Notes: generated from the sequence alone by a model not told the origin. DNA of 64,000 bases from a virus (IMGVR_UViG_3300028887_000068:64001-128000), one strand, 5' to 3'; counted from the first letter of the stretch, positions 6,980 through 32,829 are shown. Program-made: numbers and translations.

Positions 6980-7528
6980 TCACTTGGCAATTTGCCAGTC
7001 CATAGCCATCATATCCGGCTGCGAAGGAGCCCAACCAACGGTATAAGAATCGTCAGCTGCTTTCATGTCGATATGGGCATTGATGTTGCAGAGCTTTCCG
7101 GTATAGAATTCCTTAGCCGGAGCGTTACGCATGAGTTCACCATGAACAGTGGAACCTTCTTGAAGCGTAATGAACATACCCTTACCGTTCCAGCCCTTAC
7201 GTTGAACCTTACGTCCTGCCTTGAGTTGCTGAATAGCCCAATCAAAACCGTGCATGGCTTCGAGGCTTTCCATAGTATCCGCTTCTGCGCTTACGATATC
7301 GTAGGACTGACAGAAGATATTGCCTTCGCACGGGTAGAATTCGCCCTTCGCACCCTTGATGATGTAGCTGCCAAGGATGGCCTGATGGTTCCCTTCGAGA
7401 GTCGGGATCGTAAGAATTTCGCCGTCCATAAAGGCTGTCGGGCAGAAAGCTTTGATTTCGTCGAAGTTGGTTCCATTCCACTTGACGCATTCAATGGTGA
7501 TCGGCTTTTGGGTTGCTGTAAGTGCCAT
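6980..7528 (-). CDS. Two-domain protein: N-terminal widespread phage domain plus C-terminal DUF2829/Tad2-like domain
   Basis: C-terminal FDWAIQQLKAGRKVQRKGWNGKGMFITL...GWAPSQPDMMAMDWQI; N-terminal KPITIECVKW...IPTLEG...YIIKGAKGEFYPC...F..SY. Confidence 0.75.
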   Translation of the reverse strand: MALTATQKPITIECVKWNGTNFDEIKAFCPTAFMDGEILTIPTLEGNHQAILGSYIIKGAKGEFYPCEGNIFCQSYDIVSAEADTMESLEAMHGFDWAIQQLKAGRKVQRKGWNGKGMFITLQEGSTVHGELMRNAPAKEFYTGKLCNINAHIDMKAADDSYTVGWAPSQPDMMAMDWQIAK

Positions 7529-7597
7529 ATTGATCCTCTTTGGTTAGAAAAAAATGAGTACCCTGAGAAGGATTCGAACCTTCGACCTACTGCTTAG

Positions 7598-8203
7598 CTT
7601 GCTGCACTATATTTCTATAGCCATTGCTGTTGCAGTCTGGGCCATGTCTTAGCCATTTCAGGCTGGATGCGTATGGTCTCTACGGTTCCTGTATATCGAC
7701 AGTTACCTCGGCGTTGTCGAGAATAGACTTTTGGTATATTCTTACGATGTTCACCGATATAGCATCCTGCACTTTCTGTGTTAAACCATGAAGCTGTATT
7801 TCTCTTGCAAATTTTCCATTGCATGATCTTGAACAGCAGGTATACGAGAATTTTCCCTTCTTTACCAAGAAAGTTTCTCTTTTTCTTCTGGTAAATCTTT
7901 TATTACAGCAAGGACAAATCAAATCAACCATAGTGATACCACGCTTTTGCATATGGTACCTAACATGTTCCTCGTTTGTCATTACCTGAAGGTTCTCTAT
8001 TCTGTTATCCTTTTTGTTCTCGTTCTTGTGGTGTACAACTTCATTCTTATCAAGAAGACGTCCTAGAAAATTCTCCATCACAACTCGGTGCATGAAAACA
8101 TATCCAAGCTTTGTTGCGAAAGGATGTTCCGGGACAAGGGCATAATCGTATTCTCCCTTCGATATTTTCTTCCTAATATTCCACATAAAGGCTCCAAAAA
8201 TAA
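7598..8203 (-). mobile_element. Group I intron (606 nt) in the tRNA anticodon (position 34/35)
   Basis: 5' exon ends in U and the intron ends in G. P3 GGATGC/GCATCC; P4 TCGGT/GCCGA; J6/7-P7 CGTAGAGACCATACG; P8 AGCC/GGCT; J8/7-P7' TAAGACATGGCCCAGACTGCA. Confidence 0.88.
7680..8186 (-). CDS. Intron-encoded HNH homing endonuclease
   Basis: HRVVMENFLGRLL..NEVVHHKNENKKDNRIENL HNH motif plus C-terminal CPCC...CCSRSC zinc-binding region; GGAG SD 5 nt before the ATG. Confidence 0.9.
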   Translation of the reverse strand: MWNIRKKISKGEYDYALVPEHPFATKLGYVFMHRVVMENFLGRLLDKNEVVHHKNENKKDNRIENLQVMTNEEHVRYHMQKRGITMVDLICPCCNKRFTRRKRETFLVKKGKFSYTCCSRSCNGKFAREIQLHGLTQKVQDAISVNIVRIYQKSILDNAEVTVDIQEP

Positions 8204-8243
8204 AAGGCAGTTGCTCTATCCATCTGAGCTATCAGGGCCAGTC

Positions 8244-8256
8244 TCATCTTTAAGTT
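8244..8256 (-). promoter_or_regulatory. Putative late promoter of tRNA-Arg
   Basis: AACTTAAAGATGA; predicted +1 G lies 7 nt before the tRNA 5' end. Confidence 0.7.
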
Positions 8257-8259
8257 AAG

Positions 8260-9240
8260 AGGATAAAGGAATACGGCAGCGTACATTGCCGTATCTAGTA
8301 TTTTCATACAGTAATATGGGTAAACTCAAAAAACTCCCCTAGCGTACATTAGGGGAGAGAACCTATAAACTACCGGACGTATGAGCAACCGTCCAGTGAG
8401 GCACAGAAATTCAAAAATGCCCTGTCAGCGTACTTTGACAGGGCGGTATGGAGTTGTTGTTCTGAACGAACAAGATCAATTAGATCGCCAGCCGAAAAAT
8501 CCTATTAGCAGAACCTAGGGCTTTGCGTATGTCTACGGCTTGCTAAAAGCACAAAGCGTTGTAGGATTTACCTGCTAATAAGACCGCTGTTTACTTAGGA
8601 ACCTAGCAGCTTAGAAGATTGACCAAGTTATGCACTCGGATGTAGGATTTACCCTAGTAAACAAGTCGGATGAGCAAAATTCTGGGCAGGACTGCCATAG
8701 TACGTACTTCCCAATCCGAAGATCAGGCATTTTGCCGTCCCTCTCGAAGCGTTTCCTAGGCCGCAACGAGACATCGCTTTTCTTTTTACGACATCACTGT
8801 AGACGTCAGATCAGCCGATGGCCCCAAATTCAACTCTCTCCCCCAATGGCTAATCAAGGGGAGAGAGCCTTAACCATCAACATTCTTCACAGCCGTGCGA
8901 ATTACGGAATGTAAATTACGACCAGCGAAGAATATTGTCTCAGGAGGTAAAATTCTTCCCGCTACAGGCAGGGAGGCAAGTAGCAGGAAAGGTTGGTGTG
9001 TGGAGCCAACCTCGTGTGATCTTTGCCGTGTTGTAGCAAAGTGTTAAACTTAAGGAATTCCCGACATGAGCCAAGATCCACATCGGGAACTCCTTTGGCA
9101 GTCAAGGAGACTGGTATGACTGTACCAGGCACAGAACAAATGAAACTGTGCAGACCGCCTAAAAGGATCATAGAAACTGTTGAAAGGAGGGAAGCGGTGC
9201 TTCCCTCCTACACAACATCAGGTATACATCATTATGATTG
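8260..9240 (-). ncRNA. Candidate large structured ncRNA (about 0.8-1 kb)
   Basis: No credible ORF between groEL and the tRNA; more than 10 strong stems, a duplicated internal-loop module (8503-8580 and 8589-8662) and three terminator-like hairpins at the minus-strand 3' end. Confidence 0.6.
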
Positions 9241-32614: not shown

Positions 32615-32683
32615 TACTCTTGTTGTCTCATGATAATACGTACGACTTCCGTACGTATTATTTTTATTTCCGTTAGTATATTA

Positions 32684-32755
32684 TTTAATGTAGTTTAGCG
32701 GTAAAACAGCCGCCCTCATTGGGCGGCAGTCATGGGTTCGAATCCCATCACTTTT
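32684..32755 (+). pseudogene. Degenerate tRNA / tRNA-like element
   Basis: Intact D arm (GTTT/AAAC) and T arm (ATGGG TTCGAAT CCCAT), GCCGC/GCGGC anticodon stem with a 9-nt loop, acceptor stem with only 3 pairs. Confidence 0.6.
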
Positions 32756-32829
32756 TTTTGTATGTAGTTTTCTATGTTCCGATTGCATATTAAACTATGC
32801 GTTAACAAATAAAAGCTCAGGAGGCTACT

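Follow-up and report, generated by a model that had tools for sequence, protein, structure and literature searches.

The classical IC3 group I introns of tRNA genes, found in tRNA-Leu(UAA) of cyanobacteria and plastids, tRNA-Ile(CAU) of Azoarcus, tRNA-Arg(CCU) of Agrobacterium and tRNA-fMet of cyanobacteria, sit in the anticodon loop, have a small core with a GNRA loop in P9 and are mostly without an ORF. Among phages, HNH-bearing group I introns include that of I-HmuI in Bacillus phage SPO1 and those of Twort, all of them within protein-coding genes. The endonuclease I-Ssp6803I is of the PD-(D/E)XK type. The tRNA-fMet gene of Synechocystis contains an endonuclease-bearing intron (Bonocora and Shub 2001, as cited in PMC3984707), and the group I introns of phages tend toward protein genes (reviewed in PMC3984707). 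The number of described bacterial tRNA group I intron types has grown from four (Leu.3Ug, Arg.5Ug, fMet.2Ug and Ile2.5Ug) to 21, and the seed alignment of that work includes an entry 'Rba190.Arg.3Ug' with a P1 of CUUC...GGAG (Williams 2020, bioRxiv 10.1101/2020.01.27.920355). Introns in tRNA-Arg-TCT have been reported in Beggiatoa (BOGUAY) and Thiomargarita (PMC4853749). Introns in phage tRNAs were described as unreported before the 'enigmatic' ones of Devoto et al. 2019 (PMC6784885), which are not of group I, and the literature searched yielded no paper that describes a group I intron within a tRNA gene of a phage.

We analysed a 64-kb window, the whole stretch of 64,000 nt that covers bases 64001-128000 of the 242,489-bp IMG/VR virus record IMGVR_UViG_3300028887_000068 (estimated completeness 94%). 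The host genome is that of an uncultivated 242-kb jumbo phage with a G+C content of 43.3%. An initial annotation of the window had joined two tRNA halves lying 606 nt apart into a tRNA-Arg(UCU) gene interrupted by a group I intron with an HNH homing-endonuclease gene. The features of this locus are given below in window coordinates, together with the evidence used to place them.

8204-8238, minus strand: tRNA-Arg(UCU) exon 1 (acceptor 5' strand, D arm, anticodon stem 5' strand, C32, U33 and U34); ARAGORN on joined exons and in intron mode
7598-8203, minus strand: group I intron (606 nt) that begins on the base following U34 and closes with omega G at 7598; match to covariance model R1 and ARAGORN intron (36,606)
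8192-8206, minus strand: P1, in which exon CUU and intron U1 (8206-8203) pair with GGAG (8195-8192); family comparison
8182-8190, minus strand: P2 5' strand CUUUAUGUG, holding the ORF start codon at 8186-8184; pairs with 7780-7772 at 8 of 9 positions
7680-8186, minus strand: HNH homing-endonuclease ORF, 168 aa, stop TAG at 7682-7680; Pfam HNH_3 and PHROG HNH families
7772-7780, minus strand: P2 3' strand CACAGAAAG; family comparison
7762-7767, minus strand: P3 5' strand GGAUGC, partner 7670-7665; covariation at 4 of 6 pairs in relatives
7708-7757, minus strand: P4 (7757-7752 with 7713-7708) around P5 (7747-7737 with 7725-7717); R1
7684-7707, minus strand: P6 hairpin (7707-7699 with 7692-7684); R1
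7674-7683, minus strand: J6/7 (GUAGA, with the UAG of the ORF) and P7 5' strand GACCA (7678-7674); GUAGAGAC invariant in the family
7665-7670, minus strand: P3 3' strand GCAUCC; R1
7651-7664, minus strand: P8 hairpin AGCC-UGAAAU-GGCU; covaries, CACC/GGUG in relatives
7640-7644, minus strand: P7 3' strand UGGCC; R1 and family comparison
7602-7635, minus strand: P9 (CUGC/GCAG) around a small hairpin, and P9b GCUAUA-GAAA-UAUAGU; R1
7559-7597, minus strand: tRNA-Arg(UCU) exon 2 (C35, U36, A37, A38, anticodon stem 3' strand, variable loop, T arm, acceptor 3' strand and A73); ARAGORN

The joining of the two halves was borne out by ARAGORN, which folded the exons (35 nt up to U34 and 39 nt up to A73) into a 74-nt tRNA-Arg(tct) with a regular cloverleaf, and which in intron mode, given the raw DNA, called the same gene and placed an intron of 606 nt at position 36. 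Exon 1 reads ...ACUGC-C-U-U at its 3' end and exon 2 opens with C-U-A-A-GCAGU. The insert, which had been proposed to start after U34 and to end in G, indeed runs from 8203 to 7598, and the predicted joined-exon sequence CCTTCTAAGC has its splice point between CCTT and CTAAGC and gives the anticodon loop CUUCUAA. CCA is not encoded at the 3' end of exon 2. Residues A20, C35, U36 and A73 agree with the arginine identity elements. At the unjoined locus neither default ARAGORN nor Rfam called a tRNA, with a weak Rfam match of 17.6 bits to the tRNA 3' half only.

Genome-wide there were three tRNA-like matches, and the split gene at 7559-8238 was the sole candidate for a tRNA-Arg. The heavy use of AGA noted in the initial annotation was also found, as AGA is the commonest arginine codon of the genome (39% of arginine codons, 18.9 per 1000 codons). 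The window further contains a tRNA-like element at 32676-32760 on the plus strand, to which Rfam assigned 40.5 bits over tRNA model positions 6-65 and for which ARAGORN made no call. A D arm and a T arm flank its 6-bp anticodon stem, which carries the loop CUCAUUG (CAU). It is without an acceptor stem, starts 5 nt past a GTATATTA motif and has T8 at its 3' end. This element may be a stand-alone acceptor-less tRNA mimic.

The insertion falls between anticodon-loop nucleotides 3 and 4 (U34 and C35), with U at position -1 and G at omega, which is the arrangement of the Arg.3Ug class. With bacterial Arg.3Ug introns the phage intron shares the tRNA, the site (CUU before the intron, a terminal intron G, CUAAG after it), the P1 pairing CUU/GGAG and the core GUAGAGACUAUACG ... 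AAGAnAUAGUCCAG. It differs from them in its location in a phage genome and in the HNH_3 gene in the P2 loop, whereas the ORF-bearing bacterial copies that we examined (about 30) carry a PDDEXK_5 gene between P6 and J6/7 and no HNH gene. The anticodon-loop site, the small core and the GNRA loop of P9, here a GAAA tetraloop of P9b at 7615-7612, are common to the classical IC3 introns. The tRNA-Leu(UAA) intron also lies between positions 34 and 35, and many viral tRNA-Leu(UAA) introns have the same core pattern; the phage intron nevertheless occupies another tRNA, and the classical arginine intron ('Arg.5Ug') interrupts tRNA-Arg(CCU) elsewhere in the loop. Like the tRNA-fMet intron of Synechocystis PCC 6803 (I-Ssp6803I), it is an anticodon-loop group I intron that encodes an endonuclease presumably directed against the tRNA gene, but the endonuclease is an HNH_3 protein, and tRNA and host differ. 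With the SPO1 and Twort introns it has in common that a phage group I intron carries an HNH-family homing endonuclease, and it is unlike them in interrupting a tRNA. We consider it highly probable that the insert, which splits tRNA-Arg(UCU) between U34 and C35, is a mobile IC3-like group I intron of the type known from bacterial tRNA genes. It is best read as a phage member of the known Arg.3Ug class rather than a new kind of element or mechanism.

All elements of a complete core could be placed. The positions of P3, P4, P7 and P8 in the initial annotation were correct, and P1, P2, P5, P6 and P9 were present as well. In P1, U34 (8204) stands opposite G8194 of GGAG, which results in a U.G wobble at the 5' splice site; among 12 family members the same four pairs were found in nine and three pairs in the other three. 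The 9-bp P2 was maintained by compensatory changes in 12 relatives, and the copy in the window has one A.G mismatch in this helix. The omega G lies at 7598, and all aligned relatives likewise end in G before CUAA. By analogy with the family, the precursor would fold into P1-P9 and exogenous guanosine would attack after U34, at the U.G wobble with the guide GGAG. The terminal G (7598) would next occupy the G-binding site of P7, and exon ligation would restore the CUUCUAA loop.

Relatives were collected from IMG/VR by the 5' junction pattern together with a degenerate core pattern. This gave 120 core matches, 81 of which lay within split tRNA genes according to ARAGORN (tRNA-Leu(UAA) in 33 cases and tRNA-Arg(UCU) in 20 called as such). 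The intron mode of ARAGORN often shifts the splice site by 1-3 nt and then misnames the tRNA (SeC, Ser gct, Stop, Lys, Gln). About 13 more split tRNA genes were misnamed in this way and were reassigned by their junction, which in all of them reads CUU before the intron and a terminal G followed by CUAA after it. Earlier MAFFT alignments (A1, A2) had mixed two core subtypes and misaligned P4-P6 of three sequences (L177, L212, L223), and these rows were removed before the covariance model R1 was built. The resulting alignment A3 took in nine relatives of the same subtype, each with its core starting at the P2 3' strand and running through to the final G, and the window copy was excluded from it. 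With P3-P9 and the P3/P7 pseudoknot imposed on A3, 96.2% of cells were paired, versus 35-41% with partners slid. Double-sided changes were seen at 26 of 50 pairs, and none of 500 shuffles reached the observed values.

In the 64-kb window, R1 had a single match, at 7598-7783 on the minus strand (167.1 bits, E 2.3e-47), which spanned all 193 model positions and stopped exactly on the predicted terminal G. The covariance search proposed in the initial annotation succeeded with R1 and failed with Rfam RF00028 (gathering cut-off 50 bits), which matched nothing at the locus, either in the window search or at 7300-8500 with E up to 10. If the Rfam result is taken at face value, the insertion might not be a ribozyme at all, and the HNH-bearing segment would be removed by proteins (an endonuclease and an RNA ligase) or never removed. 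We regard this as barely credible, given the complete P1-P9 core, the strong covariation, the 167-bit match, the ends with U-1 and omega G, and the RF00028 matches of relatives. An ORF-less tRNA-Arg intron of 203 nt (L128) reached 74.1 bits with RF00028, above the cut-off, and the core of an HNH-bearing relative (L126) 36.8 bits (E 1.7e-6). The miss at the window locus is probably explained by the divergence of P7 together with the 400 nt of ORF that P2 contains. The Rfam seed includes no bacterial sequences (Williams 2020, bioRxiv 10.1101/2020.01.27.920355). Outside the window, the genome contains a second group I intron candidate (G000:C1:225149-225874, corresponding to L001:1501-2226, minus strand) with an RF00028 match of 28.4 bits (E 2.7e-6) and an ORF with HNH_3 and AP2 domains (L001:1605-2135). 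It is flanked by two long ORFs of unknown family, which may be halves of one gene.

The P7 of the window copy deserves separate consideration. It reads GACCA/UGGCC versus the family consensus GACUA/UAGUC, and the earlier reading of one compensated change from U-A to C-G plus one A.C mismatch was confirmed. The pairs are G7678-C7640, A7677.C7641 (the mismatch), C7676-G7642, C7675-G7643 and A7674-U7644. The mismatch adjoins G7678-C7640, which by homology is the guanosine-binding pair, and the bulged A is present. In all 82 distinct viral cores retrieved by a pattern with no constraint at this position the second P7 pair was A-U, and A.C was seen in the window copy only. With an R1 score of 167 this copy ranks low within the family, whose scores span 151-206 bits, and RF00028 found nothing at the locus though it found the related L126 core. 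These observations would fit a decaying copy in which the intron splices poorly or not at all, owing to the P7 A.C and the P2 mismatch, so that the tRNA-Arg would be a pseudogene and the HNH gene would persist as selfish DNA. Set against this, no other helix is damaged, the HNH reading frame is open throughout and neither exon shows a defect. Furthermore, three relatives (L391, L406, L416) have G.U at the same P7 pair, and the C-G fourth pair of the window copy is shared by two of them (L406, L416). Because of these G.U pairs, the second P7 position appears to tolerate wobble-type pairs in this lineage. A protonated A.C pair can adopt a wobble, G.U-like geometry, a matter of general RNA chemistry. 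The concern is thus lowered but still present. The P7 variant of the window was not found in metagenome contigs, which might have confirmed the A.C in a second assembly, and an assembly error or decay could still lie behind it. The exact 21-mer of the window's J6/7-P7-P3' segment was absent from the viral contigs searched, and when the locus (801 nt) was compared by blastn with GenBank phages, none of the 50,697 records matched. Altogether we consider a decaying copy unlikely and retain the reading of a mobile group I intron.

The endonuclease assignment of the initial annotation was likewise supported. The 168-aa ORF matched HNH_3 (PF13392) with E 2.7e-15 and 56.2 bits (curated cut-off 24.8). 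In seven related introns an ORF occupies the equivalent position, and these ORFs were 53-58% identical to it and retained the catalytic H-N-H as well as the Cys motifs; H52, H53, N61, N65, H74 and H78 were invariant across the eight intron ORFs. The ORF fills the P2 loop and then reads through P2', P3, P4, P5 and P6 to its UAG in J6/7. Its overlap with the ribozyme core, previously estimated at about 30 codons, comprises the last 33 codons (7780-7680). Since the P2 loop measures 8-9 nt in ORF-less members versus 395-401 nt in HNH-bearing ones, the HNH gene appears as an insertion into this loop; in one member the loop has 75 nt and is a probable remnant. The internal guide GGAG lies 5 nt upstream of the HNH AUG and likely doubles as the ribosome-binding site. 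Among relatives the ORF stops at the J6/7 UAG in three cases, earlier in two and later in three, and because of this variation the tail past about residue 150 is probably dispensable.

A PDB sequence search with the HNH protein returned no matching chain. In cultured phages tblastn found distant relatives only, with at most 45% identity over most of the protein, besides one match of 57% limited to residues 11-82. The HNH gene PHIKZ296 of phiKZ (within locus L246, NC_004629.1 267515-270970) encodes a protein 31% identical to the one described here and directly follows, without lying inside, an annotated 87-nt tRNA (Asn). In intron mode ARAGORN joined tRNA-like halves across this annotated tRNA and the HNH gene. 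The PHIKZ296 locus was rejected as an instance of the same intron, as R1 gave no match there.

The unit of HNH gene and core is widespread among viruses. At 42 of the 63 viral loci encoding HNH relatives an R1 core lay directly downstream (151-206 bits), and at least 31 of these 42 had the tRNA-Arg(UCU) junction. The unit recurred in tRNA-Arg genes with differing exon sequences. In two viral contigs (L164:7686-7963 and L225:8355-8632) a related 202-nt intron interrupts tRNA-Arg(UCU) one nucleotide upstream, after U33 (CCU before the intron, a terminal intron G, UCUAAG after it), and two neighbouring positions of this tRNA gene have therefore received an intron. Not every copy of the same IC3-type core (GUAGAGACUUGACGG...AAGAGAAAGUCCAG) lies in a tRNA gene, as it is also present elsewhere in L129, L137, L168, L193, L203, L217 and about 20 further viral loci. 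Many of these contigs have similar downstream flanks, and for this reason the cores probably belong to a family of introns that interrupts a conserved protein-coding gene of phages.

For bacteria we surveyed one genome per species with the core pattern of the window's subtype. Matches were found in at least 120 genomes from Gammaproteobacteria, Bacillus and relatives, Acidobacteriota, Bacteroidota and others. About 105 of the 120 matches listed sit in tRNA-Arg(UCU) at the same site, and these represent at least 100 species. The implication of the initial annotation that such an intron in tRNA-Arg(UCU) would be rare or novel was therefore not upheld, considering these species, the dozens of viral contigs, the Beggiatoa and Thiomargarita reports and the Arg.3Ug class itself (Williams 2020).

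Some 30 bacterial copies have a length of 600-700 nt, and where an ORF could be read in them it encoded the same conserved protein in nearly every case. The two bacterial intron ORFs that were scanned matched Pfam PDDEXK_5 (E 2.5e-37 and 5e-34), and a PDB sequence search with one bacterial PD-(D/E)XK ORF gave nothing. From the name of the Pfam family, we presume a link between this ORF and I-Ssp6803I. In three mapped copies the PD-(D/E)XK gene follows P6, and its product terminates in ...VP at the same UAG of J6/7. In these copies (L326:6656-7072, L264:6754-7173 and L281:317-733) the last codons and the stop form the P6 3' strand and the UAG of J6/7. None of the intron ORFs of the roughly 30 long bacterial copies matched the HNH protein of the window, and within the sample surveyed the form with HNH in P2 was found only in viral contigs. 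As viral copies have HNH in P2 and bacterial ones PD-(D/E)XK after P6, one ribozyme scaffold is seen, on comparison of these sequences, to carry two unrelated endonuclease genes at two sites.

The 31-nt junction predicted for the spliced product was present, exact and in uninterrupted tRNA genes, in at least 120 other viral contigs. The joined product is therefore a tRNA sequence that is widespread in nature, and sites to which the intron could home are plentiful. Intron-less alleles, for which the initial annotation had suggested a search, thus exist elsewhere but were not found at the same genomic place. The synteny search through the neighbouring Tad2-like gene returned one relative, of 53% identity and with no adjacent tRNA. 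The 168-aa HNH protein would most likely cut intron-less tRNA-Arg(UCU) genes of co-infecting phages, and repair of the cut allele would copy the intron in.

The Tad2-like (anti-Thoeris) gene at 6980-7528, minus strand (Pfam E 7.6e-24), begins 31 nt downstream of the tRNA-Arg gene, with which it may share a transcript. Just upstream of the tRNA-Arg gene, on the minus strand at 8270-8444, are three tandem hairpins (8444-8419, 8357-8334 and 8295-8270) with unrelated stems and a common loop A(A/U)GUACGC, and T runs follow the first two. Elsewhere in the 242-kb genome there is one further GTACGC-loop hairpin only, weaker, with 7 pairs and outside the window. The tandem hairpins could be terminators, or processing or recognition sites between a neighbouring ncRNA candidate and the tRNA.

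The position of the intron in the only tRNA-Arg of the genome, the use of AGA as the main arginine codon of the phage and the anti-defence gene 31 nt downstream on the same strand might suggest a role beyond selfishness, in which splicing times or limits the AGA-reading tRNA or the split precursor escapes anticodon nucleases, as the initial annotation had considered. No observation, however, ties splicing to timing or defence. The spliced tRNA-Arg(UCU) would be an ordinary one, with an anticodon arm identical to that of many uninterrupted alleles, and would so remain a target. The same intron is moreover found in the tRNA-Arg of many free-living bacteria, where such a role is unneeded, and its patchy occurrence beside intron-less alleles is the pattern of a homing element. 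We therefore hold an adaptive role to be very improbable, and the reading as a mobile intron is again preferred.

The anatomy of the mobile intron may bear on its expression. With the internal guide as likely ribosome-binding site, the AUG in P2 and the last 33 codons and UAG running through P3-P6 and J6/7, translation of the HNH gene and folding of the ribozyme should exclude each other on one RNA molecule. A further step, which we offer with little confidence, would be to regard the phage form as a phage-restricted chimera in which, with HNH in P2, ribosome and ribozyme compete and so provide an either/or switch between tRNA and endonuclease during infection.

For annotation, the locus means that default tRNA finders and Rfam miss the split tRNA-Arg and that the phage would be scored as having no tRNA-Arg. 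The same blind spot affects dozens of phage contigs and about 100 bacterial genomes. For the intron family, it extends a bacterial tRNA-intron class to phages. HNH and PD-(D/E)XK genes that both end on the same core UAG make this a tidy system in which to study the assembly of introns with homing genes. If the proposed competition holds, the supply of AGA-reading tRNA and the production of endonuclease would be set against each other by a switch built into each transcript.
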